This document shows positions 1-60,590 of a DNA stretch of 62,320 nt, in pieces; the stretch's first letter is position 1, and every line of letters begins with the position of its first letter. The notes beneath the pieces are model-generated. The model worked only from the letters and a program-made list of their open reading frames with translations. It ran no database searches and was not told where the DNA came from. Position numbers and translations under genes: made by a program. This DNA is from Girardia tigrina (lineage: Eukaryota), in the NCBI GenBank assembly GCA_001938485.1, contig MQRK01250859.1, positions 5,978 to 68,297 of the forward strand, read 5' to 3'.

Positions 1-54
<54 letters not shown>
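1..54. repeat. (TA)n microsatellite
   Basis: Direct TA run. Similar runs at about 10114-10172, 11086-11106, 18963-18994, 54482-54574 (gapped) and 61283-61321. Confidence 0.95.
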
Positions 55-58
<4 letters not shown>

Positions 59-935
59 GGTGAACCAAGTCTTTTCGTATTTTCTACGTCTTTTTGTTCA
101 ATTTTTTATTACCAAATAAAGATATTTTATTTACATGTATTATATGTTTTTAAAGCTCTTGAACTGCTCTATCATATTATATATTAAAACTTCTAATTAG
201 TCGTTAATATAATTTTTATGGTCTTTTAGAAAAATCATTGAAAATTTTTTAATTCGTTTTCTTTTACGCCTTTACTGGAAACAGGGCTTAAACGTAACTG
301 CAGCAACATAGAAGATATGCGAAGTTGAAGGCGATAATGTAGCCTCAAATCGCACTGCACAAAATTCGTTCAAAAGGATCAACGAAGGCGACATTGACAT
401 CGGAGACAATTGACTCGGAGAGACATTGACCACGTTCAGTCCGACCTATCACCGTAGATTCCGGAGCAATTTGTGAAGCCGTTGAGACAAATCTGTCAAT
501 AAGTACCCGCAGATTGTCGGCCAAACTCGATATTCCTCAAATATACATTGTACGACACCTTCACGCTCTTGGCAAGGTCAATAGACGATGTCGAGAAGTG
601 CCTCATGAATTGACAAAAATTCAAACCGAAAAGCGTTTCGAAACTAAAAAAAATGTCAAAAATTACCTGAATGACCGTTTCATCCGTCGAATTGTAACTT
701 GCGATAAAAGGGGGTTTATTTCAGTTATCCAGACCAACAAAATCAATGGTTGGACCCCGGACAAATGGCGAAACCGGTAGCGAAACGAGATCGTTTCTCA
801 AGGAAGGCACTTTTGTGTGTTTGGTAGAATTTCGAAGGCGTGATTCACTTCGAGCTGGTTTCAAATGGTCGTACCATCGACGTTGAACTTTACTGCACCC
901 AACTTGATCGAATGTACGCGGTACTTGGCGATTAG
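55..935 (+). mobile_element. Mariner transposon, 3'-truncated and degenerate
   Basis: TA|TTAGGGTGAACC TIR-like start. Frameshifted transposase motifs: LYWKQG..TAA, VPHELT (WVPHEL motif), RIVTCDK (first catalytic D), LCVW.NFEGVIHFEL. Confidence 0.85.
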
Positions 936-944
936 TAATCATCA

Positions 945-1360
945 GACATTAAATGGTTCAGTGCAAAATCTGCAAATAAAAAAAACTCGATTCATTAAGG
1001 TGAATTGATTGTGAGAAAATGTATGTGTGTAAATGTAAATGTGTTTATTGATTAACGTATATGTATGTGTTATTGAAAAAGAAATATATGTAAATAAAAT
1101 AAATATAATTGTTGAAATATATTTTGGTGGATTTTCCACCATCTTCAGGCTGAATTAACAACAATTTTGCTGTCTTATATATAGCAAATTGATGATTATG
1201 CAAACATCTTGCGTAATAACTAATTAAATATTTTCAACAAATTGGAAGAGAGACTTGTTTGTACATTAATGGACGGATTAAGTGATTTAATCAATAATGC
1301 CTCACAAGTAACTCTTTCCCAATAATTTTTAAAATTACTGCACAATATTTTAAAACTAAT
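945..1360 (-). mobile_element. Penelope-like element 3' end / pseudo-LTR fragment
   Basis: 1125-1355 is near-identical to 31567-31797, which encodes a GIY-YIG C-terminus (NYWERVTCEALLIKSLNPSIN). On the minus strand this is followed by a hammerhead-like motif and a CA-rich tail. Confidence 0.85.
1113..1150 (-). ncRNA. Degenerate minimal hammerhead ribozyme (G12A)
   Basis: Minus strand reads GC-CTGAAGA-T-GGTGG-AAAAT-CCACC-AAAA-TATA-TT; the core GAAA is changed to AAAA. Confidence 0.7.
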
Positions 1361-1409
1361 TTTAAAAAAAATTAAATTAAATTATTTTTAATTAGTAAGA
1401 ATCAAAGAA

Positions 1410-1510
1410 AATATCAATCATCCATCTGTGCAGGAGAGGCACAATCCGAATCAACATACAACATGCACAATATCAACACACAATTCAAAACATTCCTCAC
1501 ACATTCAAAC
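1410..1510 (+). repeat. CA-rich dispersed repeat, probably PLE pseudo-LTR/5' leader
   Basis: ATCATCCATCTG..GGAGAG.CACA..AATCAACATAC motif recurs at 14717-14805 (+) and 55190-55270 (-). The last copy lies directly upstream of a PLE-like ORF start. Confidence 0.6.
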
Positions 1511-2239
1511 AGACATTTCAAGGAAAAAAGTATATTTTACCTATTATAGATAAATTTAGTCGATATATTTCTTTAAATGTTGTGGACAAACAAGATGAAA
1601 AGACAAATGCTTATATACTTTTGAATCGATGGATATTAAAATATGGTGCACCTTGAGTAATGTATTTCGATTGTCGAAAATCGTTCCAATCCAAAATTAT
1701 GAAGGAATAGTAGAACGTTATAAAATTCAGATTCAATATTCAAGCCCATATCATCACAACACCAATGGGCTAATCGAAAGACAATTTAGGACAATTCGAG
1801 ATTTTATATCTTCTTCTTTAAAAGATAAAAATGGAAAACTTGGGTCGACTTATTGCCAGAAGTTGAATATTCCTTAATTACCACAACACAAAAGTCAATC
1901 GGAATGAATTCAGCAAAAGTCGTATTGGGTTTCCAGATAGATAGGCAATGGAATAGTATTAAAGAGTTAGGAAGAAATCGTGAAGATATTTTAAATACCG
2001 TTAGACAGAATCAAAATAAAATTGCATATGATAATAGTAAACGGGGAAATAGAGAATTTAATGAGGGAGAACATGTTCTAGTAAAAGTTGAAACCGAAGT
2101 AATAAAGATGATAACCTTAACGAGGGGCCGATGAAAATTCATAAAAAGCAACATGACAGAAGCTATGAATTACAAGATAAAAACGGAAAATTATTGGTAA
2201 GGAATATAGAGTGGTTGAAACCTTTTAAAACGACAGGGA
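1510..2239 (+). mobile_element. Gypsy LTR retrotransposon integrase 3' fragment
   Basis: YSSPYHHNTNGLIERQFRTIRD integrase core and a C-terminal RNIEWLKPFK, then a purine-rich tract abutting TGTTAG. Confidence 0.85.
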
Positions 2240-2453
2240 TGTTAGATATTATAAAATTAAATTTAAATTAATTAAATAAAATATTACACAATCAACAAAT
2301 TTAGAATAATTATATATTTGTATTATATAACTATTACGGGGTCGAGAGCGGAGTTAACCTTTGACTCTCCATTTATTCTGTATATAACTGATGTATGTGT
2401 TTGTAATTTAGTTTATTAAATATATTTTAGAGAAGATCTTTTGTCTTCTAACA
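2240..2453 (+). repeat. Putative 3' LTR (214 bp)
   Basis: Begins TGTTAG immediately after the purine tract and ends CTAACA, a 6-bp terminal inverted repeat with TG...CA ends. Confidence 0.75.
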
Positions 2454-3569
2454 CGTGGAATTCAATCTATTAATTCAATTTATTTAATTTTTTTGTTGTT
2501 TTAAATTACTTTTTTAATTGTATTTTTTGAAAAGGTTGTAATTAGAAATGCTTTAAATTGCTTTAAATTACTTTTAAAATTTTCTAAATTATTATATTAA
2601 TTTAAAATTTTCTAAATAAATTATTTGGCCAGATTATTTTTTACTAATTCCTAAAAAACATTTAGTCAAAACGATAAAAATAATATTTCTTCGTAGTAGG
2701 AGAACGTCAAACGATCAATATCAGTGTTTATTGCGTATTTTTGTGCTGGATTTTCAAAATATTAACCTCAAAAATATGTCAACTAAATCCTAATGTAAAA
2801 AAGCCTTTTTCTCTAGTAAAATTTATTTCAGACCTCCAATACCTGTTTGGAGTCAAGAAATAAGGATGATATGTTTTCTATTGAAATAAAAATACTTGGT
2901 CTGCAATCCGATCTATCTTGGAGACGCAGTGGTAAAATATTTTTATGTCGACCAAAAAATAATAAAAAAAATTTCCATAAGTCTGAGGAAAACTATTTGA
3001 AAACGATGAATTATATAATATTATTTATTTACAGTTATATAATTTTCATTATTTTTAAGATTTTTTAACAAATATGTTTAAAAAACAATCACATTTATCT
3101 TTTGTCAAAGAAAAATCAATTTGTCGATATCAAAAAGCTTATTTTGTAAAAGTATTTTAAAATAACAATGAAAATAATCGTAAAGATTTAGAAGATCAAA
3201 ATTTCTCAACTCTGAAGTAACTTTAGTGATTTTTTAAAAAAAATAGAAGGAAATAAAGTACTACATTGATTGTGCGTATCGAAGTTTAAATATTATTGGA
3301 AACTATGTCATAGTCAAGGTAAATTTGGTAGTAATATAGTTTATGTAGCAAAATTCACCTCTAATATAATAATATAAATTTTAAAAATATGCGAAAGTCA
3401 ATAAAACTGTATTAACTAAGGACTGAGTGAGAAAAATATTACTAACTTTAAATCTCTATAACTCCAACATAAATTCACAAATTACATAAAACTAATCAAG
3501 TAGGCCGTTGTTTGAATAAATCAAAATAAAATTCATTTTAGTATTTATTTTTAAATTTCATTTTTCATG

Positions 3570-4510
3570 AATATGTCTTCAGAAACTGGAAGTTACGAAT
3601 TAATTATTCTTTGATTTCAAGAAAATCCACAATCAGAAAACAATTTATAATTCTATTAAAAACTTCAATGAGAACTTGAAGGTTTTCAGAAAAATTGGTT
3701 CAGGAAGAAGAAAGGATTTTTTGTGTAAATAGAATGTGAAGAAAGTAAAGGCTCTGTTAGAGAGAAATCCTCGTCTATCAAATCGAAAACTGATGGTAAA
3801 TGCAAATTGTAGCGAGAATTCAATTCGTAAAATTAAATAATCTGTGGGTTTAAAAACGTATAAAGTTCTAACAGTACCTGATGGGTACGCTAACAAGAAC
3901 GTATAGGCGCAGCAGCGAGTTAGAAAGTTGAAATCTGGTTTTCTTGCGAAGAAAAAAATGTTGCATTAAGGATGCTCTGCGAGTTTTCCCAGTTACCCGG
4001 ACAAGAATTTTACTCTGCAACTAAGAGAGAAGGAGTTGAAGAAAAAATTAGAAGCAAGAAAAACATTAAGTTTTCCAAAAATTTTTTGTTTGACAGGCTA
4101 TAGGAAAAGGATTAAATGCTTTGTCACATTGGGCACAATAAACTAAGAAATCTATGGAAAAGAGTGCTCACAAAAGCGTTTATTACCATTCATAAGTCAG
4201 CACGGAGGTCTTACTTTTTTTTATTGTGGCACTATGGTAAGGCAGCCAAGAAGTGGTACGAAGACAATAACGTCGATTTAGTGCAATGAGAGGCAAATCC
4301 ACCAAATTTTCCAGAGCTTCGCCAAATCGAAAGATATTGGTCCCTGGTAAAAAGGAAATTAAAGACGAAAAACAAGAGAACACAGAAAATTGCAGATTTT
4401 GTGAAGAAGAGGAATAATGCAGCCAAAAACTAGAAACTACAATTGCAAGTTAATGGCAGGCATTCCAGAAAAGCTCGTAGAATTTATTCAAAAAATAAAT
4501 AATCTTTCTT
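3570..4510 (+). mobile_element. Degenerate Tc1/mariner-superfamily transposase, ITmD37E (DD37E)-like
   Basis: Frameshifted pieces RKTIYNSIK..RKIGSGR, LERNPRLSNRKL and HYGKAAKKWYEDNNV..NPPNFPELRQIERYWSLVK resemble DD37E motifs. TIRs not located. Confidence 0.7.
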
Positions 4511-5551
4511 AGCTTACTAAAATTATTTTGAATTAAACACATTTTTCAAAACAGTCGTTATTTTTTTTCAATCAAAAATAACGTTTAAGATGATTTTAAA
4601 GTTAGTAATATTCTTTGCACTCAGTCCTTAATAACGTTACAACGGACAGACAAAGCAAAGGTATCAGTGGATCACAACAAAAAAGAAATAGTATAATTTG
4701 AAAGAGTAAAAAATAATTATTAGTTACTTGAAGCGTCTGAGTAAGAATCAACCAATAGTTAAGAATCATGGGGATAGTACAGAAGTCGTTTGGTTTTGGA
4801 TTCATAAAGTTGATATTATTTGTTTTTGACTATATTTCGTAATTTGGCGAAATACAGAAGTAGTTCATTGTATATTTTTCGGTTGGCAGTAATTTTTGAT
4901 GATTATTTCAGCACAATAACAGTAGGTTCCTTTTTCCTGATTATTCGAGTATAAAACAGAAATTGATCATCAGTCACATTTTTAGTAGTCAGATAATTAT
5001 TATTATTCTTTTTTGAATTAAATTTAATAATAAGGAATATTAATTATTAATTTTAACTTATAATTTATTTATATTATAAATATTTATTTTATTTTAATGT
5101 GGTTGTACTGGACCAACAACTTGGAGGTGGCAGCTAAAATCATTGCTCCCAAGTAGCACTGATCTAGAACAACTGGATGATATCGTAAGATATTACAGAA
5201 ACGATAATTTAGTAAAACAGTTTAGATTAAATGAAAAATTTATTTAGAGTAATTATTGGCCTCATTTTAAAAAAGAAAAATAAAATGGAAGAAAATATTT
5301 TCGTATGATGAGTTTCCATGTGTTGAGAAGTCACATAAACATTGTGATTGTTAAGAATTAGCATTCATTTTTCGTTAGTTATTTCGGAATTCATGATTAT
5401 TGTTTACATTTTTTTAATTGTATCTTCAATAAGTAATGAGGAGATAAATTTAACTTGAAATGTTTGTTCAGTATTCTATAAATACAGTCAACCATATACA
5501 ATATGAACACTAGCGTTTTAAAGTGTTTTTCATGGTTTTTAAGATAACAAT

Positions 5552-5773
5552 NNNNNNNNNNNNNNNNNNNNNNNNNNNNNNNNNNNNNNNNNNNNNNNNN
5601 NNNNNNNNNNNNNNNNNNNNNNNNNNNNNNNNNNNNNNNNNNNNNNNNNNNNNNNNNNNNNNNNNNNNNNNNNNNNNNNNNNNNNNNNNNNNNNNNNNNN
5701 NNNNNNNNNNNNNNNNNNNNNNNNNNNNNNNNNNNNNNNNNNNNNNNNNNNNNNNNNNNNNNNNNNNNNNNNN
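5552..5773. other. Assembly gap
   Basis: N run. Other gaps at 13872-14636, 19125-19149, 42271-43203 and 54502-54551. Confidence 1.
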
Positions 5774-6512
5774 GTTACGGTAACCGTGGTACTTGTGATT
5801 ATACTTGTGTACATTAGATGATTATACATATGTTATGTATTATATTGGTGCATGGTTGTAGTACAATAGAAGTTTTTACATGTAGATTTTACATGTAAAA
5901 TAAAATGTTATGTATCTTGGTTACGGTAACCATAGTACTTGTGATTATACTTGTGTACATTAGGAGATTCATGATGTATTGTTTGATGGTAAACAACATA
6001 CATATATCATATGGGTTTCAGATATATACGAAAAAATAGATTTTTGAGCACTTTTTTGAGTATTTCAGAAATTTTCAAAAAAATCGATATTTCAGCACTT
6101 TTTCGAAAATGTTTACATGGAATCTGAATGTACGTATATGGCTTCCTATTCAAGTGCATTAGCACTTTTTTGATATTCTGCTTCCTTGTATTTTTAAAAT
6201 CAATGTGCAATTTGTGCAAATTTGCACATTATGCTTATTACAGAGAAAAGTAATTAATATATGAAAATTTGAATTGTATATTCAAATAGAAAATCAATAT
6301 ATGCATCAAACACATGATATCTATTTTGACACTGGTACTTTTAAAAAAATTTATGTATTGATTTTTACACTTTTGCACATGTGCAACTTGAAAAGCACTG
6401 TGCTAGCACGTTTAAAATGTTCGGCAAAATGTGCACTATCGATTAGCACTTTAAAAATATCAATTGGCACATCTGGGCACTTTATTCTACGGTCCTTAGT
6501 GATGGGGTTACG

Positions 6513-6865
6513 GTTGCTATGGACACTGGAACCGTTACCATGGTTACAACCGCCTTGGAACACTGTATCTGTTGCCAATGAAAAACGTCCCTTGGTTACC
6601 GTTACAATGGTAATCAAGGTCTTGGTTACGATCACCAAGTGAACCGGAACGGTTGCTATCGTACCAAGGACCAATCAGAAGCGTTTCTAAGTGAACCGGA
6701 ACCGTTGCTAAGGTAACCGGAACCGTTGCTGCCTAGGCTAAGGTCATCGCGACCGTTGCTAGGGAATCAAGGAACCAATCAGAAGCGTTTCCAAGTGAAC
6801 CGGAACCGTTGCCATGGTAACCGTGCCCGTTGCTATGGTGATCGCGACCGTTGCCATGGCAACGG
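6513..6865. promoter_or_regulatory. Array of RFX X-box-like palindromes with CCAAT boxes
   Basis: GTTRCYATGGYAAC-like units start at 6513, 6534, 6571, 6601, 6652, 6704, 6725, 6755, 6808, 6829 and 6850. Perfect GTTGCCATGGCAAC at 6850-6863; CCAATCAG occurs twice. Confidence 0.55.
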
Positions 6866-9149
6866 CCTCCTCCCGGGGGTGTCATGTGGGGAGAACATAC
6901 ATTTTTCCCCTACTTTATTTATTTGCATCTATTTTTTTCAATTTTTATATTTGTTATTTGTAATTTATTACCTCATAACAATGTATGGTTGTTATGATGA
7001 TTTATAATTATTATTCGAAATTGAATACTTAAAAATTCAATTAATATTATTATTAACATTACCTGTCTAAATGCGTTCAAGAATTTCCTTGTGTGTTTTC
7101 TCAATCATCAAATATAATATCACAAAAAATCATCGCATCGCTTTCACATGTGAGCGCTGTGAACAAATTTTTTTATAAGTATCCATCATTATTTTTCCCG
7201 ACTCCGCAGTTCGGAATATACGAGACATTATCGAAGAATTTCTTATCAAGCTATTTATGTAGACAGTAACAAGTTATTGATTTTCTCCGACAACCGAACA
7301 GTTATTGATATTGGACATCATCTGAACTGAGTTATAAATTTTTGCCAATGACTGAACTACAATATCTATCGCCGACGTATTCTCTTTGTGGGAATTATTC
7401 GTAAGATTATTTGACTTTTATTTACTGTCTGTCAAGAACCTATTCTTTGTATGATCACTACCTGTGATTTTCATTTTCTCTTCAACGGTATAAATATTGT
7501 TAACTTTACTCAGTTAAATTAAATTATTTTATTATTTATTTATGTCAATTTTCTTCATAACTATTGCCTATAGTAATTGGTGTGGAAAATGTTCGATAGT
7601 TTATTTTCTAATGACCTTCTAGCTTTTTCCCTTATTATTTACACTAAAGAAAGATTGTTTTTTGATGAATGAATATGTTAAGAATAACCTTTATCTTCGT
7701 CAGATAATTTTAGTAATTTAATGCTTCTCTTTTGTTTAGAATTTGTTTCTCATTTTCATAAAAGACAGTTTAAAATGAAATATTAAACAAATGTCTAAAT
7801 TATTGATTTACTTTACATTTCTTTTGTGCATTGTTCAAAATAAACAGTGTTCGTTATACAAAACCTATTTTCCCATAAAAACCATATTATTTCTATTAAT
7901 TTTTGACTTAAATGTTTATATTAAACTTTGTGCATATTCAGCAGAGTTCATAATAAACAGTGTTGACTGTACTTATAATTGCTTTCTTCTCTACCTAGAA
8001 GATAAGGTAGTCAAAAGGTGATCGAAAGACCATCATGCAGACTATTCCTTAGACATCAATGATCTTATTCTGGATCATTGTGTAGATACTGGTATTCTTA
8101 TTAACAACTTGTTCAGGATTATAAGAACAGTTAATATTTGATTTTAAGTAAAACATTAGGAAAATTTAAAACATAAAAAATTTTGAAGAAATATATATTT
8201 TAAAAAATTATAAAAATATATAATATAATAGAAGTAAATTTCAAAAATTGAATTTTTAGGAGAAAAGAAAATTTAGTTTCATATTTGATAATTTGCAAAA
8301 TAAAAATGTTTATAATATTTTAAAAATGGAAATAAAATAATAATCTTTTTTTAAAATATACATATTTCAGCTAATATAATTTTTGTTTGAATAAACATTA
8401 TTAAAGATTAAATTTTATGGTAAAATAATCTTTTGAAAAAAAATTATTATCTTATGAAAATAAAGTAATGTTATATTATTTTTTCTTTCTCTCTCTGTAC
8501 ATATGACGAAATTTGATAAAATATATGTTTTTATTAAAAATAGATTTTCAGTTTAATTTAATCAAAAGTTGTAATTTTTAATTTTGAATATATTTAAGAA
8601 AATAATTATTAAAAAATAATAATTATTAAATTTCGAAAATCAACCAAAACTTGAAATAATCAAATTTGACTTTTAATTTTCAAACAAATGACAAAGATAA
8701 ATTATTCCTTTTCAGTAGTTTTTGATCAAGTTTTATCGTAAACCCTTTTGTTTTATTAAAATAAAGATTATTAGATAAAATTATAAAAAAAAATAAATTT
8801 TGTTTGTATCTTTGTAATTTTTTTCTAATTCTATAACATTATTTTTTTAATATTATTAAAAAGAAGATCTTGCGGAATTAGTTTTTTTAACACAACTCAT
8901 TTATTTATTACTTTGTTAGAAAGTTTTACTGTATTACAATTGTTTTTTCTGGTTTTTAGTAATTTTAATCAATGGTTATGAATTTATCTGAAGTTTGCTT
9001 GAATTGCTGTAAATATTAATTTGCAACATTCATTTATTCACGTTTCAAATCCATGTCTTGAAAACGCAATGCTTGCAAAGCGTGCACCGTAGCGTGGCTG
9101 TGGGTGGCGATGTTAGGGGTGTCGATAATTTCATGCATTTTATTCTTGA

Positions 9150-10175: not shown

Positions 10176-11085
10176 AGTTTTGTAAACGCAAGTTTAGTAT
10201 TTCGAAAATATAATTTGATTAAAGCTTTTTTTATATAATTATTGGACATGTTTCGATGTTTACATACATCATCATCAGCAATTTTCGGATGTTTAGCATA
10301 TGAATATTGAATTGTTTGAATAATACAATTTTAACAGATATATTTACTTTAAAAGGTAACGAAAAAATTAATTATTATTATTCATCAAAGTATTATTGGG
10401 TAATAATGGCAAAAAGAATATTTTAATTAAAATTTTTAAGTATTGAAATAACCTTACTTTGACCATTCTGAATGTTAATTGATTGTTTGTAGTGTCTTAT
10501 TAGTAGAGATTCACAAAACTGTCGTTCGTAATGTGAATCAAAACCCTTTGTAGAACAGAAAACTCATCTTTTGAAATGGATGAGGTTCTATCCTTACAAC
10601 ATAACCAATGATCAAGAACCTTACTCGATCGACTCATTTGCGAGTGCTCGCTAATCCGGGTTTTGAGATGACGATTTGTCTCTCCGATGTACGAGTTTTG
10701 ACACCCGTGACAATTAAATTATATACCAGATTAGTTTGCAAATCACAAACTGTTTTCGATTTGTTTGAGAGGATACTTTGAACTTTGGATGTGACAGAGA
10801 CTACTTTAGCACTACTTATTGTTCTACAAATAGTCTTCTTAAATGCTCTAAATCATTCACAATCTGGAATTTTAATGATTTGTTTGTATTCTTCAGTATT
10901 TTCTTCTTTTAATTGTTTTTTAACTCGTGCATCTGTTCATAATTTGTCTAATGTTACCCTAATGTTGTGTTCTATTTGCTTGTTTGTATACATATTGTCC
11001 CTCAAGAGTCTTCTAAGAATATTTAAACCCTGATTTGCAATTTCAAAACTAGACGACAAATTCCAAACTCTGTGAACAAGCCCTT
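10173..11085 (-). mobile_element. 5'-truncated Penelope-like element flanked by (TA)n
   Basis: GLVHRVWNLSS..NILRRLLRDNMY (post-RT region) and a GIY-YIG region (TNLVY..CHGCQNSYIGETNRHL..R..E..ERQFCESLLI), then a 3' UTR with a hammerhead. Confidence 0.9.
10241..10282 (-). ncRNA. Intact minimal type I hammerhead ribozyme
   Basis: Minus strand ATTG-CTGATGA-T-GATGT-ATGTAA-ACATC-GAAA-CATG-TC-CAAT: full core, 4-bp stem I, 5-bp stem II, palindromic ACATGT stem III and a GUC cleavage triplet. Confidence 0.92.
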
Positions 11086-13493: not shown

Positions 13494-13871
13494 ACATCGG
13501 AGAGACAAATCGTCATCTCAAAACCCGGATTAGCGAGAACTAGCAAATGAGTCAATCGAGTAAGGTTATTGATCATTGGTTATGTTGTAAGGATAGAACC
13601 TCATCCATTTCAAAAGATGAGTTTTCTGTTCTACAAAAGGGTTTTGATTCACATTACGAACGACAGTTTTGTGAATCTCTACTAATAAGACACTACAAAC
13701 AATCAATTAACATTCAGAATGGGCAAAGTAAGGTTATTTCAATACTTAAAAGTTTTAATTAAAATATTCTTTTTGCCATTATTACCCAATAATACTTTGA
13801 TGAATAATAATAATTAATTTTTTCGTTACCTTTTAAAGTAAATATATCTGTTAAAATTGTATTATTCAAAC
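13494..13871 (+). mobile_element. Penelope-like 3' end, inverted copy of about 10315-10690
   Basis: Near-identical reverse complement with only a handful of substitutions; runs into the gap. Confidence 0.92.
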
Positions 13872-19062: not shown

Positions 19063-19167
19063 CCATATTACTTCGATTTAACGCCGCGGCGGTTATTTCA
19101 AATGCTGATTCGAAGGTGCGGCGGNNNNNNNNNNNNNNNNNNNNNNNNNTAAATCGAAGTAATACGG
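19063..19167. mobile_element. Gapped Tc1/mariner/pogo-type element or MITE
   Basis: TA|CCATATTACTTCGATTTA ... TAAATCGAAGTAATACGG|TA: inverted termini with a TA target duplication. Confidence 0.8.
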
Positions 19168-21124
19168 TATTTAAATATATAGTGCAAGAAACAGGTGAAT
19201 AAAAAATTTAGACATTGTCTTTCAAATTGATGAAACAAATAAATATCTTGATTGTCTTTCACAAGGGAGGCGATGAAGAATTATAATCAACAATAATTCA
19301 CACGAAAATAATAATTTGAATTTAAATTCTAAACAATAACAAGGGAAAGAGGAAATTTAAATAACATAACAGTTATAATATTCATTAAATTGTATCAGAT
19401 ATTCGAACTGAAATGATAATATAATTGCTACTTTGCTTGATTTTAATTAATAATATTCTAGCTACTATATTAATAAAGATGTTTCATTGTTGGTAAAAGT
19501 AAAAAGTTTTGTTATTGAATTATTCTTTTTTAAATTTTAATTCCCAACGAAAATTTTATGTTTTATTTTATATATTTTTTAGGTATAAACACACATATTT
19601 TAATTAATCAAATATATAATTTCATTTGAAAATTCGATTTCCTTATTTGACTTTTAAGTTTAATTTAAATTCAATTTTCGCAAAGTATTGATCCTGAACC
19701 ACGATCAAAGTCAGTCTGATATTAAATTTCTTAGATAATTAGCATATTTAACAAAATATATACTTTTTTTATGTTCTCTAATTAATGATCATTTGAACTA
19801 AATTATTTTTATTTGAATGAACGATTCCTCTTGATTTTCTCCACTATGAATACTTATTTTCCTATAATTTGATTATTACCACAATAAGAGCGTCTTTTTT
19901 CTTTGTATAAGTAAATCATCTTGTGAGTATTTTTTCAAGTAAGAAGTTTGCAAAATATCCACAGAATACACATAGGTCGTTTTGGAAGTTCTGAAAAGTC
20001 ATACTTGGAACCTCTTCTTAGTATAACCGGAGTGAACTCGAAAATGATATACCTTTAAAAATATATTTTAAATCAAATTTAATAAAGGATTTAATATTAC
20101 TGTGTCATACATATGCAGAGTTTTACATTGTCTAATAATTAATCACCTTTCTTCATCGTTTCAATACTTTTACTTATCATATTATAATACCTTAAAGCGG
20201 CATATATTTTAGCTTCTATTGAGGTCTCATTGGGTCTTTAAAGGGATTATATAAGCATTCTACAAGTCTCCACCCTCTGGGATCGTAAACGATAATTACT
20301 TGTGGAAAGTGGGTTAAAATTGGAAGAAAAACAGTTTAAACATTTTTTTTAAATAGATAATCGTGAAACGATTTTTGCCAAAAAAAAATTTAATTAATTG
20401 ATTTTTTTGAACTTTTTTTTGCTTATTCTGTTGTACATTAAAATTCTAAATGTTATTTCTAATATGGATTTTAAAGAAACGTTTTAGTTAATTTAAAATA
20501 ATTATAAATATAAAGATAATCACAATAATTTATAAATTTCCGTCGTTGTTTAAACGAATCACTTTAATCATCGGGAACTTCACACAGACAGAAATCATAA
20601 GTCTATTATAGCATTAATAGAATTTGAAATTTTTTTATTTAAAATATAGAATTCGATTTCTTAAATATAAGGAATGTAAGGGCAAAGCTACTAGAACTGA
20701 AGTTTCAAATAGAGAACATGTTCAGTTCTTTATAAGAGTTGGTAACATGTTTTCTAAATGATCGGCGTTAAATGGCATAATTTTCAAAGTCATACAGCAA
20801 AATAAAAAATGTATAAAGCTGGGATACAGTTTATTTAAATGCTTGGTTTAGGAAAATCATTAATTCTTGTGTTATTACGAGATGTAATATGATCGTCACA
20901 TGTAATGATGAAGCCAATGACAAGCTTTCAAGTGGTGTAATGATACCGGAATTGAATAAAGTAGATTTATCAACTGTTACACCAAAGGAAGCTTTTAACC
21001 AAGTTCGGCACGAGATTAAGTTATATCACAATATATATAAAGTGATTGAAAAACAGAAGATTACTAATAGATTGATTTTGCTAGAAGCATATGGTTATAT
21101 CAAATCTTAAATTTCAAAATTCAA

Positions 21125-37774: not shown

Positions 37775-38955
37775 CCGTTAAAGTCCAGAATCTTTTTCCG
37801 ATAAGCCCCGCCACCATAAAAAAAAGATTGTAAAAAAGACGGTATGAAACTTGTACTTTTCTTTTTTATTGAAGAGGGTGAAATTGAGATATTTTATTAA
37901 TAATCTGTATGAAAAGGTCCTTATTTCGGTACCTTTACCTTCACACGAACTCACACAAGTAGTTATTCACTAAAGATTGATGTGTACCGCATTGGAGGTT
38001 ATTCTGCATTTTGTAGACATGCCAGAAAGATTCTGTGGATTTTGTGTGAGCTCCCGTCGTTGGATCCACGAAGTTTTTGGTATGATTAACCGTTTGATGA
38101 GTATAATTCATGCCAATCATCGTTTCAATTCTTTGGTATGAAACCTGCATATCGGAAATGATGATTGAGCTGGGAGCGATGCAGGCCTAGATTATGTCCA
38201 GCAGACTGGCCGCAGTTCCATGTGGCACTGCATACATGAATAATTTCATAGTCTCCCAACAGATCCCTCCAAAAATCCACTTCTGAGGAAGAACTCGTCT
38301 TATGTAGCTTTTGCAGCGAGACATTAGTGATTCATCGATTTTGATGTGTAGACTGGGCAGCTGACAATAGTTGGAGTCTTCAAAAACCGCCAGGAGTAAA
38401 TTTCGCGAAGAAAGTTCTTCCAGTCAACCGCGGTTGTGTGGCAAATTGATAATTCCTCTAAGCAGAATTTGATTGTTACCAGATGTTGAACCAGCAATAA
38501 ATTAATAGAATTAATGTCCTGATTTCCGTCTTATACCGTTCAAAGCCAAGTTCACTTTCGAAGACCGATTTCTTGCTGACACTGTCAGGTATTATACCTC
38601 CACCTGTCAGAAACAGTTGAAAATGCCATATGGTGGCCATTGTTGCATAAACGTTGCCGATGGATCATTCCGTGGTTATGCAAAAAATGAACTATTGTCT
38701 CCTTGTCATGATTTTTTTAATATAAAACCAAATAAATTATTTTTGATACGAACACTATGTACCGTCCCTTTTTGGAAACCAGGTTTTGATTCATCAGAAT
38801 CAATGATTTATCACTGAACAAAATCAGATGTCTTCAGGTTTCATAATAGACTAAGTTTTACAAATATTCATCTAACTCCTGTCTAGAAGAACAAATTACT
38901 GTTGATATCATGTTTCTTTATATTTTAATTTCATAAAATATAAAATCTGGACTTA
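37775..38955 (-). mobile_element. Degenerate Merlin (ISXO2/IS1595-like) transposon
   Basis: IDES, WIFGGIC and YTHQTVNHTKNFVDPTTGAHT..ESFW motifs. Short inverted AAGTCCAGA / TCTGGACTT near the ends. Confidence 0.85.
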
Positions 38956-46599: not shown

Positions 46600-49089
46600 T
46601 TTTTTACGACAATTAATTGCGACGGTATAACCGTCATCGTCAGGTCTCAAGAAAGAAATGAATTTTAAATCTGCTTATATAGGCAAGCAGTGATTATGTC
46701 ATCAATGGATTATTATGTCATCTAAACACGCTTAAAAGGGTTTTCGTGAGACCCGTTTGCACATTAATCTTAGGATCTAAAGATCTGATATAAAGTGCTT
46801 CACAGGCCACCCTCTCCCAATAGTTTTTAAAACGAGAACGCAGAATTTTAAAATCATTTATGTTTATGTTTTCATTCAACTTACAACCCTTTCTGTGTTC
46901 TGCAATATTACTCCCACCTACATTCCGACCATGTTCTTGGATTCTCCTACAAAGATGACGGGACGTCTCTCCAATGTATGTGACATTACACCCATTACAT
47001 GTAAATTTATATACGAGATCTGAACATAATCCAATGTGGGGTTGGAGACTTATTACAAAACACATTTTGGATTTTATATGCTTGTGATATTATTTTTAAA
47101 TTAAAGGCATTATTTACGCATTTTAAAATTGAACGTTTAAATTGACCAAATTCCTCTGAATTTGGAATGTTTAAAACATATTTTAAAGTTGTTGAGTCTT
47201 CTTTATCATTTATAATCGGTTTATTAATTTATTTATCAATTGTTTCTTTCGTCAATTTCTCAACATTTGATTTTGAGTAACCATTTTTATTCAATAGTTT
47301 TGTTAATTGATTAATGCTATCACAATTTTTTGTATAAGTTGATGATAATGACCAAGATCGAAAAATTAGTCAGTATCAGTTTTCTTTCTGTGAATCTCAG
47401 TCTCATAAACATCTCTTTTCCTTTCAATCAGTAAATCTAGAAAAGATAATTTACCATTATTCTCTGTTTCTGTTGTAAACTTAATATTTTGAAGCAAAGA
47501 ATTTAAGTATCCTAAAAATGGATCTATGTCAGTTTGATTATCGAAAATAAGAAAAACGTCATCAACATAGCGTTTATACGCTAGAGGTTTTTGACCCGGA
47601 AACAAATCGATCTTATCTTCAATACTTGACAAAAATATTGAAGCCAGTGTTGGAGCTAAAGGAGAACCCATTGCTACACCATCAATCTGTTTATACCACT
47701 CATTATTGAAAAGAAAATGAATATTAGAAGTGGCAAAACATAACAATTCACGAAATGGAACTTCCTCGATAAGATGGTGTTCACCAACATTATCTTTCCA
47801 AAGATTGCAACATATATCAATCGTTTCCCTCAGAGGAACATTGGTGAAAAGACTAACAACATCAAAAGAAACCATAATTTCATTTTTGTTACTAATCTTA
47901 TAATTTGAAATAAAGTCAACAAATTCAAAACTGTCTAAACAATTAAAACCCTTTTTCAGAAGTGGCTTTAATTTACCATCAAGATATTTCGCTACTTCAT
48001 ATTGAGATGTATTTACCATAGATAATACGGGACGCAAAGGAATGACATCTTTGTGAACTTTTGGAAGTCCATAAAGTTTAGCTGGTTGAGAACCAACTGC
48101 TTTTAAACTATTAGCTAAATTTTTATCAATATTTTTATTTTCAATTAAATTCGATAATAACGACGACAAATATTCAACATCTTTTAAAGGGGGCAATTTT
48201 CCATTTTTCCTAAATTTACTAACTTTATTAAATTGCGGACAATTTAAAACTTTTCCATTTTATCAAAATAATCACAATTATTCATTACAACAAGTCCATT
48301 CCCTTTATCAAATTTACATATTTTTACATTGTTTTTTGATAAATTTTTTAAAATTAAAAAATCTTTATTACATTGTTTTTTATTTTTTCCAAATATACAT
48401 TCGTACTATTATTTAAAACGTGTTTTAAAATATCAAAATCCACGCTTTTAAATAATTTAGCATGATTTAATGTCAAAAATTGGAACATTGATTCAATTTT
48501 AGATTGAATTTTAAATTTATTTAACCCAGTTCTAATTCCATGTTTAGGACCAAATTTCAATAAATTGATCTCTTTGTCTGATAATTCTACATTACTTAAA
48601 TTTAAGACTGTATCTTTAACATTAAATTCAAAAACACCAAATAATTTTCTTAAAGTTTTCAGTTTTTTGTTCTGTGTCTCAATTTTGTTACGAGAGATTT
48701 TATTAGCGTGATAATTAGAGACAATATTACACCAATGCAAACACAAATCACTACTTACATTATACAATGCAGATCTAACAATAGTTAGTCGTTTCACAAT
48801 TTCTATTCTTCGTTTCTTCTCTGTCTCCAGCATTCTCCTTAGGATCTTCCAATGAATTTTGCGAATATCTTCTTTCTGTAAGTATTCATGCAATTTTCTT
48901 TTGAATATAAATGAGGGGATAATATTCTCGGCAACACAGGAAGCCAAAAAATATATATCCAATTCCTTTCTTCGTAACGAACAAACTAATTTCAGATATT
49001 TATTGAATGTAACCAGCGCATCAGGAAAATAATAATTCAAAAAATTAAAAAATAATGGCAAATTATGTTTAAAAACCAAAACACGCCAT
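46600..49089 (-). mobile_element. Near full-length Penelope-like retroelement (RT plus GIY-YIG), frameshifted
   Basis: LYGLPKVHK, PLRPV, SFDVVSLFTNVP, GVAMGSPLAP, YKRYVDD, FLDL and LVYKFTCNGCNVTYIGETSRHL. ATG near 49089, stop at 46718. Confidence 0.95.
46608..46646 (-). ncRNA. Minimal hammerhead with A13C substitution
   Basis: GAC-CTGACGA-T-GACGG-TTATA-CCGTC-GCAA-TTAA-TT-GTC; all three stems are intact. Confidence 0.8.
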
Positions 49090-49844
49090 TTGCTAAATTT
49101 ATTTTTTATTTATTTTTATTTTTATTTTAATAAACAAGTGGTGTTTGACTCAGCATCATTGTAAATCTCGTGTTGAGGAAAATTTACAGTGTTTAGGACA
49201 TTTTGAATGGAAAAATCTGGAATTTTTTCGTTTGGCTTGTTTAATTTCGAGTATATAATTTCATAGTTTTTTTGCTAGACTATGTGCACATCTGAAAGAA
49301 TTTCTGTCACCGCCGTCTACAAAGGGCGAGCTGACCATTTCACAAACTTCCGAAGACTCGTATATCTTATCCTGACAGTCTTCCGAGGTATCGCACAATT
49401 TATGTCTACTGTTACAATTCTTCGGTTTTGTTTTACATGTAAACCCATCTGACACAATTTTTTGGATTTTCATACTAAGGACGATCATTATTTGAAGAAG
49501 ATAATAAAAAATTATTTTCCAACACAGGATTGCAAATAATCATTATGTAACGATCTGTTCGTCCTTGATTCCGATACCGATGATGTTGCAACTGTATTAT
49601 AAGCATATAAACTGTTATGGCTCATGTTTAGAGTTTCTTAAGAATGTTCTTCATGAATCATTGAACTGATTGACATGAACTGATTTTCGATATCAACGAA
49701 GATGCCGGTATCTTCAAGGTACTTTTTCTAAATTTACTCCCCATCGGGTAAATCTAACAATCCCCAAAAAGTTGCAAAACATCCTTTTCCCTGGGTGGGT
49801 TAAAACATTCGCTCGGTGACAAAGCCTTTTATAAATTGATTATT

Positions 49845-54173: not shown

Positions 54174-54939
54174 TATTATATATTTTATATTAATCGATAT
54201 ATTTATTATCTGGATGTAAAATATATCTTATCGTATTATATACTTCTAAATGACGTATTCAATGTTTTTAATTTATATAAATAATAATTGAAGCAAAAAA
54301 TCAGTTAAATATCGAATTACTTAAAATAAAAAATAATTATTTTAATGACACAAAATTGGACTTCTCTTATCCTTATTCGTACCAAGATTCATAAAAGCTT
54401 TTAATAAATATCATATTTTATTTTCACTGAAATAGTATTTTTTATTTCCTAAAGTTTTATTTTTTCATTTTCATTACATAAATATATATATATATATATA
54501 TNNNNNNNNNNNNNNNNNNNNNNNNNNNNNNNNNNNNNNNNNNNNNNNNNNATATATATATATATATATATATAAAGTTTAAAAGCTTTTTGATAAAATC
54601 CCTGCAGATCTTAATCTTACTCTGATACCGAGTAACTCAGAAAATATGGCAAAGGTCTTTTATGGTTTTCTTAAATATTAAAATTTTTTATAATTGAAAT
54701 TAATATTTATTTTTTTCTTTTTTATATATTTGCTGATTTACAGATTAATTTTTCTGTAGTTCTTTCCTTTTAGTCTAAATAATATCAAAATTGAAAACAA
54801 AATCAAATTAAGATTTCTTTTCAAATTATATTATCTAAATTTATATTTTTAAAAAATTATTTTTTCAAAAACTTTTTCGAATATATATTATAATATTTAA
54901 TGCAACATTGTGAGGCATTATGTTATTTAAATCTATTTA

Positions 54940-55350
54940 TTTGACTGTTTCAAACTTTGACTTCCATATCAATCTTCTTTTCTTAATATATTTAGCTGCT
55001 TTTTATTCTCACACAAACAATCGGATAGAAAGCTTGTACATTGCCCTCCTAGGAATAATAAAATATGGTGCCATTATTTTTAGGTATTTAATATGGGGTT
55101 TTAACTTGAAGAATCTCTGCAGCAAGTTATTGTCATTCAATTTTACAAAACAGAGATTTACTTCAGAAAAAGGAAAAATATGCAGCCATAATTGTAAGGA
55201 ATATTTTGAATGTTTTGTGTTTGAATGTGTATGTTGATTTTGAATTGTGTCTCTTCCCACATGGCTGATTAATATTTTAATTATAATTATCTGAAAATAT
55301 GTGATGTTTAAATGTATTTCTAATTTAAAATAATTGTAAATTTTAAATAA
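54940..55350 (-). mobile_element. Penelope-like 5' fragment (leader plus ORF N-terminus)
   Basis: CA-rich leader then ATGGCTGC. Broken frames give FLSDCLCEN..KYIKKR, similar to FLASCVAEN..FIFKRK in the 48354-49079 ORF. Confidence 0.55.
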
Positions 55351-56304
55351 GTTTATTAATTTTCTTTATAATTTTTAAATAAATAAATTGAATTAATATT
55401 TTTTAAATAATTAATAATCATTTTAATTTTTAACCAATAAAATTTGGAGTAAATATTTTAATAATTTATATAAATCTCTATTCAGTCAGATAATAAGATT
55501 AAAGATATTAATTAATTAGACGGATGCAATCGTACGAATGTTTTGACAAAGATTGTCCAGAGGATAATTCAAATTGTTGGGTAAATAAAAATATGAAAAT
55601 TCATATTGGTGTTCTTAATAATAATGTCGCTTGCACTGTTTAAAAGCTTTGCCTGTGTGTTTTATGGTAGAATAACATTATTTACAATTTTTCCATTATG
55701 ACTTTTGTTGAAAGAGTTTTGAATCCAATCTTTTTTCAATTGTGATATTTTATAAATTAATTAATTTTCATTTTATTAAGTAAAAAGTTACGACTTTCTA
55801 TTTTTTTCTAAAGGATTTGGTTTCTCTTGATGTTTGTGGTTGAGAATCGGGATTTTAGATTCCCCGGTTGTTTCCATTTTAAGAAATCAGATTCAAGTAA
55901 AATTTCTTTATCATTTAGGTTCTTTCGGTTTACCAAAATTTATCGTAATGTTTTAATTCATTCTCCAAATTTTTAATTGTTTTTATACACTCGAGATTAG
56001 GATTATCTTTCAACGGTTAATTGATTCTTTCGTCCTTTATCATTTTACATTTATCAGTTATTTCAACAATTGGTTTTACAGATGAATATAGATCATAGTA
56101 TTTACATTTAGAATCAAGTCTTTTTTGAAATTCTTTTATTCTTTGCAGCAAACAAAAAAATGTTGGAATGATGGACGCAATACGTTGACATGATGGATGC
56201 ATGACGATAGTAATTTATATATGGTCACGTTTTGAATGGCTGATACAATAATGGTTGATAGCATAGTATAATATAATAATATAATATGTATATCTATAAT
56301 ATAA

Positions 56305-58067
56305 TATTTGCACACATATATTCGAAAAAAGCACTAGGTATCGATTTTTTCAAAAATGTTGCTATTGAATCTGACTATTCATATATGAGTTACTATCCAT
56401 GTGTTCAAACAGATTTTTCATATTTTGCTTGCTTCGCCTTCTGCCTGGTTATAAATTAATAATTCTTTATTATTAATTAATTCTTTATTATTAATTCTTA
56501 ATTAATAATTCTTTAATTATTTATTCTTTATATTATTAATTCTTTAATAACCTTATGAGAGTTCTCCACCACTTTGCATTGTAAAACACAACATTCCACT
56601 AATCGATTAATGTACGTTTCTTCAAAAATCTAAGATCATATTCCGACTATTAATCTATGGGTTTCTATACATGTGTCCAGACAGATTTTCGATATCTTAA
56701 TACCTTTGACCTCTGCCTAGCTCTATTATATAAAAAACATAAATATAGTACACTTTGCACAATTGTAAACTTATTGATTTTGAACACTTGTACATGTGCA
56801 GTATTGATTAGCACAGTGCAGCCTAGGCAGCACATGTGCATACGAGTGCAGTATTGATTTTTGTTCTTTTTTCTGTAATTTTGGTGGTTTTTACATGTTT
56901 TCGATGATTTTAAAGGTGTTTTTCATGGTTTTAAAGATAACGGTGATGGTTTCTAGAGTGTTATAAATTGTTTTTATATATAATATTAAAAGGTTATGTA
57001 TCATGGTTACGATAACCTAGGTACTTTTGAAGATTGATGCCTAGGCTCAGGATCTTAGCTGATTATTTAGATTTTATGTATTATGTCGATGCATGTTTTA
57101 AGTGCTATAGGAGTTTTATACATATAGTTTTTTACATATAATATAAAAGGTTATGTATCTTGGTTACGTTAACCAAGGTACTTGTGATTGTTTATGAGGT
57201 ACATTAGGCGATTCATGAGGTATTGATTGATAGTAAATAAAATACATATATCACATAGGTTTCATATATATATACGAAAAGATTGATTTTTGAGCACTTT
57301 TTTAAGAATTTCAGAAATGTTCGTAAAAATTGATTTATCAGCACTTTTTCGAAAATGTTGATATGTAATCTGAATGTATGTATATGGGGTACTATTCAAA
57401 TGCACCAGCACTTTTTTGGTATTCTGCTTCATTGCACTTCTAAAATCGATGTGCATTTTGTGTAAATTTGCACATTATGTTAATTATAGAAAAAGTAATT
57501 AATATATGAAATTTCTAATTACACATTCAGATAGAGAATCAAAATTTGCATTAAACACATGATATCGACTTTTGGTACTAGCACTTTTAAAAAATTATAT
57601 GTATTGATTTTTGCACTTTTGCACATGTGCAACTTGAAAAGTACTGTGTTAGCACATTAATAATGTTCGGCACAATGTGCAATATCGATTTACACTTTAA
57701 AAGTATCGATTAGCACATCTTGGCACTTTGTAGCGATCGATTATTACTTTTTTCTATGGTTGCTAGGGAAGAGTTCCCGGTTGCTATGGATACGGTAACC
57801 GTTGCCATGATTAAAACCGCCTTGACTCACTGTATCCGTTGCTATTGAAAAACGTCACTTGGTTACCCTTGCTATGGTAACTAAGACGTTAGTTACCGTT
57901 GCTAGGGACCTGGGAACCAATCAGAAGCGTTACCAAGTGAACCGGAACCGTTGCTGTCTAGGTTAAGGTAACCGGAACCGTTGCTATGGTAACCGCGACC
58001 GTTGTCGTGGTAACGGGTAAACCCACCCCCGGGGGAGGTGAGGGAGAAGCCCCATTTTCCCTCTACT
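56305..58067. mobile_element. Putative Maverick/Polinton TIR, copy 2, with X-box array at 57759-58014
   Basis: Homologous to 5515-6914, same orientation, ends CTCTACT. Internal degenerate duplications; left boundary is approximate. Confidence 0.6.
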
Positions 58068-58174
58068 ATCACGTGATCTCAATATGAAATCAATCCATCG
58101 ACTCGAACATGCAACAAAGAAATCACGGGCCTTACAAGGTCTTCGGCAATTTTAAAACATCGAATTTGAAATCA

Positions 58175-58529
58175 TTTAATTATTTATAATTATCATTTTT
58201 AATTATGTCTGCTACAGGTACCATGTAAACCTGTAATACCTGTCCCATGGTCGAATAGTTGGCGACTAAACCGGCTCCACCACCCAGAGCAAGCTGCGTG
58301 AAGAGGGTGTGGACACCTAGCAGGATGAAAAACCAAACCTAGCAAAGGGTGAATGAGCTCCTTGGAGCCAACGACCATATATACCTGGAGAGGAGATGGG
58401 CGCCACCATGTTCCTTGCTTACTGAGACACTCAAAAAATATGCAAACCCAAGCCATAATGCTTGGTATTACAGGTTTACATGGTACCTGTAGCAGACATA
58501 ATTAAAAATGATAATTATAAATAATTAAA
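58175..58529. repeat. Perfect 66-bp inverted repeat (58175-58240 / 58464-58529)
   Basis: Checked base by base; 223-bp spacer. Confidence 0.95.
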
Positions 58530-59700: not shown

Positions 59701-60496
59701 TCGAAATGCAGTTATTTAGTCTCAACAATATATGTTAAATGTTATAGATGTCCTGCAAAATATATTCTTATCACAACGATCGGAGGTATCCCTACGCAAT
59801 ATTTCATGATAATTTAGGTGCACCTGATATATTCTGCACGCGAAGGGCACTAAGTCAACTTCTCAACACCATCACTATATCCATCAGGGGGGACAATGCG
59901 ACAAAGATCCGGATCTCATCCGACGACCTCACAGACGACAATAAATGGCTTGTGGAACATTTTTGTAGTGTAAATCATTGATCGTGCAGGTAATATAGAA
60001 TGACTGGCTTTGTAATATTTTAGATAACCAATGTTATTTAACTGGTTATGATACATTTTATATAGATAGTTCTCAAGGTTTTAATCTCTACTTTTTCCTT
60101 AATTTGGAAACGCTTCATTATATCCTTCAATTCAGTTTCATTCTTCATTGAAATGGTTTTCCGTTTTCTTAAAGGCTGACTTGTTTAGTTGATTGAATTT
60201 CTAGTGTTTGTTCACTATTTTTTCTTCACTAGATTAGTATACCAGTTTATATTTCTCAAATGCAATGACTGTTACATTTGAGCGACACGCCGTCATCTTC
60301 GATAGATGAAAGCAATCAATCAGGTAGAAACAGTTTCATTATCAACTATTTATAGTACTGCAAAGATCGAATAAAATAAAATCATCATCTAGAATAGGCC
60401 TATGATTAATTTTTCAATATAAGCTCTTTTACTCAATTCAGATTAATAATCCATCATTTACATTTATAAAATGTCCTGTAATTGAAAAGCAAATTG

Positions 60497-60590
60497 GGTG
60501 AAGAGGGTGTGTGGACACCTATCAGGATGAAAAACAAAACCTAGCAAGGGGTGGATGAACTCCTATAGGCCAATGACCATCCCTATCTGG
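60497..60590 (+). repeat. Second copy of the 58297-58390 leader segment
   Basis: GTGAAGAGGGTGT..GGACACCTA.CAGGATGAAAAAC.AAACCTAGCAA is shared. Confidence 0.85.

Follow-up and report, generated by a model that had tools for sequence, protein, structure and literature searches.

A dispersed repeat of Girardia tigrina, possibly a solo long terminal repeat, carries an array of RFX-type X-boxes

We analysed a 62,320-nucleotide stretch of the Girardia tigrina genome (GenBank assembly GCA_001938485.1, contig MQRK01250859.1, positions 5,978 to 68,297 of the forward strand; this whole stretch is called the window) and found that a dispersed repeat, present there in two copies, carries close to its shared terminus an array of X-boxes that matches the sites of RFX factors, which are conserved regulators of cilia genes (PMC10530576, PMC7498320). 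Judging from the sequence, RFX is probably the ligand of this array. The repeat itself, a 2-kb non-coding unit with a candidate 4-bp duplication, only minimally inverted at its ends and bearing an enhancer-like array on the 5' side, is best read as a solo long terminal repeat (LTR); we lean slightly towards this identification, in the minus-strand reading. The whole account, in which a solo LTR carries an enhancer array for RFX and NF-Y, has in our estimate an even chance of being correct.

To score the array we used the published RFX consensus from PMC10530576 (monomer GTTRCY; X-box GTNRCC N0-3 RGYAAC). The 14-mer X-box, at up to two mismatches, has 12 matches in the window against 1.63 expected, a number reached in 0 of 100 shuffles, and all 12 lie inside the two repeat copies (8 in copy 1, 4 in copy 2). 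The GTTRCY monomer occurs 14 times in 6480-6914 (1.21 expected; reached in 0 of 2000 local dinucleotide shuffles) and 15 times in copy 2 (~1.2 expected). Full X-boxes by the published consensus number four in copy 1, one in copy 2 and one in the other 59.5 kb. A scan with RFX-type sites against a shuffled background, as proposed in the first-pass annotation of this DNA, therefore places the array far above chance. That annotation had counted about 11 units in copy 1; the array exists, but the figure counts half-sites, and half-sites make up most units. Among the 14 in-register units of copy 1, 8 are within two mismatches of the full 14-mer, 4 are consensus X-boxes and 2 are perfect. Successive units are spaced by 21, 37, 30, 30, 21, 31, 21, 21, 30, 32, 21, 21 and 21 bp in copy 1 and by 21, 21, 37, 30, 30, 31, 21, 30 and 21 bp in copy 2 (over both copies: 21 bp, 11 times; 30 bp, six times; 31 bp, twice; 32 bp, once; 37 bp, twice). 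Other particulars of the first-pass description stood up as well: the perfect 18-bp palindrome, the unit starts 21 bp apart (6513/6534, 6704/6725, 6808/6829/6850) or 30 bp apart (6571/6601, 6725/6755), the interleaved CCAATCAG and CCGGAA motifs (the latter starting at 6644, 6696, 6717 and 6800) and the closing CTACT, which we found at 6910-6914.

The CCAATCAG motifs, which resemble NF-Y sites or Y-boxes, bear a constant relation to the array. In 3/3 CCAAT modules the gap from CCAATCAG to the next GTTGC is 25 nt, and in all three the central A of CCAAT lies 31 bp from the G of GTTGC; HLA-DRA has the same 25-nt gap. Read inward, each module has the order X, then ATTGG, so that it points into the element and therefore fits what is expected of a 5' enhancer. 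The three versions of the 39-bp block from CCAAT to X are set apart by no more than 1-2 nt, where overall divergence is 16%. RFX and NF-Y are known partners: MHC class II promoters require both at a fixed, helically phased spacing (PMC4381081), the RFX1-3 peaks of ciliated cells are enriched in Y-boxes (PMC7498320), and a genome-wide RFX5-CCAAT distance peaks at 29 bp (PMC4889920), a value that runs to the edge of the matrix and is to be set beside our 31 bp with this in mind.

The two copies are direct repeats 51 kb apart, 83.5% identical over 954 aligned columns, and they share an end base: 13/15 of their terminal nt match, against 2/15 of those that follow. This abrupt stop of homology bears out the first-pass reading of the segment as the terminus of a dispersed mobile element. 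Going inward from the terminus, both copies have AGTAG, a purine run, a stem-loop of 8-9 bp, a GC-rich block and then the array, some 50-400 nt inside; the array is offset from the terminus by 51 nt in one copy and 53 nt in the other. That this purine run might be the polypurine tract preceding an LTR that starts with TG was considered and rejected, because homology stops exactly outside the run in both copies and the bases after the TG differ. The body of the element is non-coding and built of internal duplications, among them ~150-bp repeats with a 13-bp palindrome, GGTTA-nnn-TAACC. This palindrome recurs at 57005-57017, 57162-57174 and 57961-57973, and 7/7 matches at up to one mismatch lie inside the element; these are possibly relic array junctions or sites for a second factor. 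A further internal paralogy of ~350 bp carries copy 2 leftwards to 56255, and the homology of copy 1 to copy 2 ceases at ~5516. Copy 1 contains an assembly gap (5552-5773), whose 222 bases exceed the corresponding stretch of copy 2 by ~160 bp; the excess would fit one more ~150-bp internal repeat. Segment 6480-6914 had no match among phages or plasmids, a 20-mer from it had none in bacterial and archaeal genomes, and the window gave no match to Rfam and no tRNA genes.

The identification as an LTR turns on the ends of copy 2. Perfect duplications of 4-8 bp accompanied by a terminal inverted repeat of at least 2 nt were enumerated with the left end in 54600-56300, and one of the three candidates uses the right end, 58067, that is fixed by homology to copy 1. 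It reads ATCA|AGT at 56113-56119 and ACT|ATCA at 58065-58071, has a terminal inverted repeat of 3 bp only, and places the left end 138 bp past the last traceable internal homology. With the right end fixed, such a candidate arose in 57 of 3000 random stretches when these were 150 bp long and in 334 of 3000 when they were 860 bp long, a chance of 2-11%. Target duplications measure 3-6 bp in LTR elements and 6 bp in Polintons (PMC10045372), and the candidate 4-bp ATCA duplication, seen at one copy only, falls in the LTR range. On the minus strand, copy 2 has a TATA-like box close to its far end and then AATAAA, a pair that was chosen post hoc and is found in 88 of 5000 random 130-mers; AATAAA by itself is found in 545 of 5000 random 45-mers, and the element holds other AATAAA matches. 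LTR U3 regions are often non-coding and full of internal duplications, and AGT-type LTR ends occur in Drosophila gypsy-group elements. A reading-frame test over the presumed empty site of copy 2 did not discriminate (matched by 3952 of 20000 random joins), nor did the same test with the true right flank of copy 2 (6643 of 20000 random joins did equally well). For copy 1 there is a further left-end candidate at 4717-4735, where a 5-bp duplication is accompanied by AGT at 4722, 794 bp from the homology edge of copy 1, the corresponding distance in copy 2 being 791 bp; it is the sole such match in 1-5551, where 1.44 are expected, and 4722-5515 shows no detectable homology to its counterpart in copy 2 (an equal score was reached by 35 of 300 null alignments). 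The coordinates of these features are collected in the table.

Table. Features of the two repeat copies, in positions of the window (strand as reported)
Feature	Position	Strand	Remark
Copy 1, truncated at far end	5516..6914	-	Homology to copy 2 at 5516-5548 and 5774-6914
13-bp palindrome GGTTA-nnn-TAACC in ~150-bp internal repeat	5919..5931		Also 5773-5785
X-box array of copy 1	6505..6865	.	14 units in register
X-box, published consensus on minus strand	6534..6547	-	
CCAATCAG (NF-Y/Y-box-like)	6671..6678	+	Next GTTGC 25 nt on
X-box, published consensus on minus strand	6704..6717	-	
Second CCAATCAG	6775..6782	+	Inside 104-bp block duplication
Full X-box, published consensus on both strands	6808..6821	.	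Consensus from PMC10530576
Perfect 18-bp palindrome	6848..6865	.	Encloses full X-box 6850-6863
Copy 1 terminal stem-loop (6888-6910; 8-bp stem, 7-nt loop), followed by TACT	6888..6914		Terminus 6914; AGTAG on minus strand
Candidate target-site duplication ATCA, left	56113..56116	+	
Copy 2, candidate complete solo LTR	56117..58067	-	1951 bp; AGT...ACT ends
AATAAA, polyadenylation-signal-like	56135..56140	-	Starts 23 nt before candidate far end
TATA-like box near copy 2 far end	56215..56221	-	Other TATA-like matches exist in the element
Internal paralogue of 57223-57570	56255..56600	.	223/311 columns identical; old duplication within the element
X-box array of copy 2	57755..58016	.	10 units
CCAATCAG of copy 2	57917-57924		
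Single full-consensus X-box of copy 2	57980-57993		
Copy 2 terminal 9-bp stem-loop (58040-58063) and terminus	58040..58067	.	
Candidate target-site duplication ATCA, right	58068..58071	+	

If the solo-LTR reading holds, the segment would be the 5' (U3) end of the long LTR of an LTR retrotransposon on the minus strand. Copy 2 would be what remained, as a solo LTR, when the two LTRs of a single insertion recombined, and copy 1 a diverged relative that has lost the promoter-side 800 bp. The array may have grown as a 21-bp unit, made up of a 14-bp X-box and a 7-bp linker, was duplicated in tandem; slips of 9 bp would have yielded the 30-31-bp steps, and one 104-bp block duplication (6649-6759/6752-6854), present in copy 1 only, would have added to it. 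Host RFX dimers could then sit on one helical face and cooperate with NF-Y, and the array would enhance an LTR promoter ~1.5 kb further in, so that the element would be expressed in cells with high RFX, most usefully in those that form sperm. Both copies would by now be non-coding relics, with an enhancer that may act on host genes or may have no such effect. Fungal RFX-family factors act in DNA-damage and cell-cycle control (PMC10530576), and by analogy a trigger in replication stress offers an alternative to a ciliary one.

Mobile elements with tandem host-factor sites can rewire gene networks, and an array for RFX paired with NF-Y would offer an element a direct way to reach germ-line expression and to seed the genome with cilia-programme enhancers; it would also allow a test of whether fixed-spacing cooperation of RFX with NF-Y predates, or extends beyond, MHC class II promoters. 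The boldest version, in which an invertebrate retroelement family independently built the geometry of the RFX-NF-Y enhanceosome of vertebrate MHC class II promoters, multiplied and helically phased in its LTR for male germ-line expression, with solo LTRs now enhancing host cilia or sperm genes, we regard as unlikely. If, on the contrary, the array is a neutral minisatellite, what we describe is an ordinary repeat remnant. A literature search on Polintons and RFX returned a single match, which concerned giant viruses; one on X-boxes or RFX and transposable elements in invertebrates returned a single match that was not about mobile elements; and the literature on Mavericks and their terminal inverted repeats did not mention RFX among the matches listed. 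None of these searches was aimed at RFX sites in LTRs, and they do not establish that the array is new if the element is an LTR.

Several observations count against the account of a solo LTR with an RFX/NF-Y enhancer, and we set them out together, beginning with those that bear on the LTR. Neither copy is joined, within the window, to a gag-pol region, a primer-binding site or a second LTR. Copy 2 ends in AGT...ACT rather than the canonical TG...CA, and AATAAA lies so near the end that nearly no U5 is left. When the right end is allowed to shift by 3 nt, the boundary candidate becomes easier to obtain by chance (129 of 3000 random stretches at 150 bp; 752 of 3000 at 860 bp), and copy 1 gives nine boundary candidates, as chance would.

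The remaining points concern the function of the array. Four of the five interval classes lie no more than 1.5 bp from a multiple of 10.5 (p ~0.04), a value that has to be read with the classes not being independent, and the 37-bp interval, half a turn out of phase, occurs in both copies. Tandem Repeats Finder reports 21-bp arrays in the segment, and the copies differ from each other by large indels of 21 or 9 bp; tandem duplication of a 21-bp unit explains much of the phasing, which is real as a pattern but, the array being a decayed 21-bp tandem repeat, need not reflect selection. The first-pass annotation had named motifs conserved no more than their spacers as a result that would tell against its reading, and this is what both comparisons of X-boxes with spacers gave. 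Between the copies, X-box columns match at 90/107 positions and spacers at 94/117 (p=0.49; body 595/705), and the seven register-defined orthologous pairs give 34/41 for left halves, 28/36 for right halves and 32/42 for linkers, which do not differ; two copies give this test little power, and any signal would be blurred by neutral decay following insertion. The consensus positions of the left half agree in 33/34 cases between the copies, and over all 24 units the left half-site is kept at 73-100% per position, against 38-58% for linker positions 15-19, figures that are partly circular because the units had been chosen by that half-site. The CCAAT spacing counts as a single observation, because the three modules descend from one, and 2.8% of 667 39-column windows of the body are as conserved as the CCAAT-to-X block; taken together, the spacing is one suggestive coincidence. 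Finally, we recognised no host gene in the window and no target for the array.

Among alternatives, the one to consider first is that of the first-pass annotation, in which both copies would be orphan terminal inverted repeats of a Maverick/Polinton and the array a host-factor enhancer or an accessory to the origin. We consider it unlikely. The array would then be comparable to the NFI and Oct-1 sites in the ends of adenoviruses; the coupling to ciliated or male germ cells and to protein-primed replication that the first-pass annotation proposed is hypothetical. The common end, 5'-AGTAG, agrees with 5/6 nt of the vertebrate Maverick end motif (AGT)2 given in PMC8097293; tested against (AGT)2 or (AG)3, the sixth base, G in one copy and A in the other, breaks (AGT)2 in both. 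Maverick copies are mostly degraded, many without paired repeats (PMC8097293), C. elegans Polinton repeats persist as direct repeats with putative factor sites (10.1101/2024.01.15.575659), and a partner could hide in the five N gaps of the window (1995 bases). No inverted copy lies in the window, which offers only 5.5 kb upstream of copy 1 and includes the gaps just mentioned; no AGTAG with a matching 6-mer precedes copy 2 to give a 6-bp duplication, the best for copy 1 being one match with two mismatches; and no pPolB, c-integrase, ATPase, protease or capsid family was found by Pfam scans of 262 frames (133 of the 162 frames of at least 62 aa, and 129 frames of 40-61 aa from selected flanks), scans that would miss heavily decayed genes and any frame shorter than 40 aa. 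Upstream of copy 1 there is only one integrase (1399-2268), of Gypsy type; it was tried as a Maverick integrase and rejected, because a purine tract and a ~210-bp TG...CA LTR come next. The non-coding stretch, at least 1813 bp, is longer than the repeat lengths given in PMC8097293 (46-1447 bp) and 10.1101/2023.08.22.554363 (100-1500 bp), and copy 2 is closed by a 4-bp duplication candidate without a long inverted repeat. That a Maverick end uses RFX as a replication co-factor strikes us as far-fetched.

Still less probable is a non-autonomous Helitron-like element (HLE2/Helentron) with a host-factor minisatellite, whose 3' end would be the plus-strand end seen here. Helitrons that spread tandem factor sites are known, and in both copies the stem-loop of 8-9 bp stands directly before the end, that of copy 2 having a different loop and a symmetric extra pair. 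If the end is taken to be CTAC, a T follows in both copies, as needed by HLE1 (A^T) and HLE2 (T^T) according to PMC11417382. By the same source, HLE1 has a 3' hairpin followed by CTRR, a 5' TC and insertion at A^T, and HLE2/Helentron has terminal inverted repeats of 12-16 nt; here the hairpin is followed by CTAC(T), which is not CTRR, and inverted repeats of that kind were not found, since a left inverted repeat of 12-14 nt has 0 matches for copy 2 in 33000-57724 and a single match for copy 1, which sits within a Tc1 element. The terminal stem-loop folds no better than shuffles do (z -0.77 to 0.54), the 262 frames contain no Rep/helicase match, and Helitrons produce no target duplication, whereas a candidate exists here.

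It is also improbable, in our view, that the array has no regulatory role and that an X-box 21-mer was simply amplified as a minisatellite, with the phasing and the CCAAT spacing as by-products. The 21-bp tandem arrays, the indels of 21 or 9 bp, the X-boxes conserved no better than linkers and the preponderance of half-sites all speak for this; the constant offset of the array from the terminus, the presence of both palindromic and GTTGCTAGG-type RFX sites and, with the circularity noted above, the retention of left half-sites in degenerate units while linkers drift speak against it. Least probable of the alternative identities is a transposon of the cut-and-paste kind that ends in TA/TAG (hAT, GingerRoot/IS3EU or similar) and whose own transposase would bind the array as a subterminal field. 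Subterminal repeats are common in such elements. The terminus allows the reading TAG(A)GGG, two further bases agreeing by chance, and GingerRoot ends are mostly TA...TA, but GingerRoot requires inverted repeats of 100-150 bp (both from PMC6839031), no matching inverted terminus lies in the window for either copy, no 8-bp duplication accompanies a matching end, and the unit closely fits the host consensus.

The window around the two copies is AT-rich (29% GC), has five N gaps and consists largely of decayed transposons, which suits an invertebrate-like eukaryote; its Pfam matches are only to Penelope, LINE, Gypsy, mariner/Tc1, MULE and Merlin-type families, with weak matches below cut-off besides. 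CpG is undepleted even in old transposons (observed/expected 1.03 over the window), which suggests that the host has little or no CpG methylation. A decayed Gypsy integrase end with its purine tract and short ~210-bp TG...CA LTR occupies 1399-2453, and a Tc1-like element, whose inverted repeats are 36 bp long and whose DDE transposase is broken, occupies 3417-4630. At 10314-10690 and 13494-13871, inverted 378-bp arms, 98% identical, enclose a LINE reverse-transcriptase remnant; the arms have a weak GIY-YIG match and are related to a Penelope end near 50 kb, the right arm adjoins an N gap, and the structure is either a composite element or an assembly artefact. A fairly intact Penelope, with reverse transcriptase and GIY-YIG, lies at 46721-49109, and its best relative among the matches listed is 69% identical; of at least 120 matches to the reverse transcriptase, two bore species names, both of cnidarians, at 43% identity. 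An MITE-like element with perfectly complementary 66-bp arms (58175-58529) begins 107 bp to the right of copy 2, and its interior recurs at 60488-60590. Between GC-rich inverted sequences at 19083-19166 there is a 25-base gap, the whole being likely a collapsed small inverted-repeat element, and two stop-free frames of 97 and 100 codons without a Pfam match (20817-21107, 38515-38814) are possible host exons.

Compared with known systems, the candidate solo LTR is closest in layout to the solo LTRs of the Drosophila Gypsy-group elements gypsy, 17.6, 297 and ZAM: the short AGT terminal inverted repeat, the 4-bp target duplication, the non-coding body, the 5' enhancer repeats and the 3' polyadenylation-like signal are alike, whereas the length of ~2 kb, the RFX/CCAAT array and the terminal stem-loop are not, and there is no internal region by which to place the lineage. 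Maverick/Polinton terminal inverted repeats, as described in PMC8097293 and 10.1101/2023.08.22.554363, share the 5'-AGTAG start and a long non-coding terminal region, and differ in the inverted pair, the 6-bp duplication and the core genes, none of which appears in the window. The HLE1/HLE2 elements of PMC11417382 are alike in the terminal stem-loop, the following T and a ~2-kb non-coding body, and unlike in their CTRR, their terminal inverted repeats, which are short, and the candidate target duplication seen here. By features rather than by sequence comparison, the NF-Y-rich LTR12/ERV9 LTRs of primates (PMC4889920) are likewise LTRs with CCAAT boxes at fixed distances to other factor sites; their partners are E-box factors and Znf143, while the repeated site here is the RFX X-box. 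The module itself resembles the X-Y module of MHC class II promoters (RFX5 complex with NF-Y; PMC4381081, PMC4889920 and PMC7498320) in the order of X half-site and CTGATTGG and in a similar, helically constrained distance (31 bp here; 29 bp reported, to the matrix edge). No S box or CREB X2 site was noticed here, no search having been aimed at them, and the X sites are arrayed, in a host that is not a vertebrate; any likeness to the MHC class II module would be convergent.

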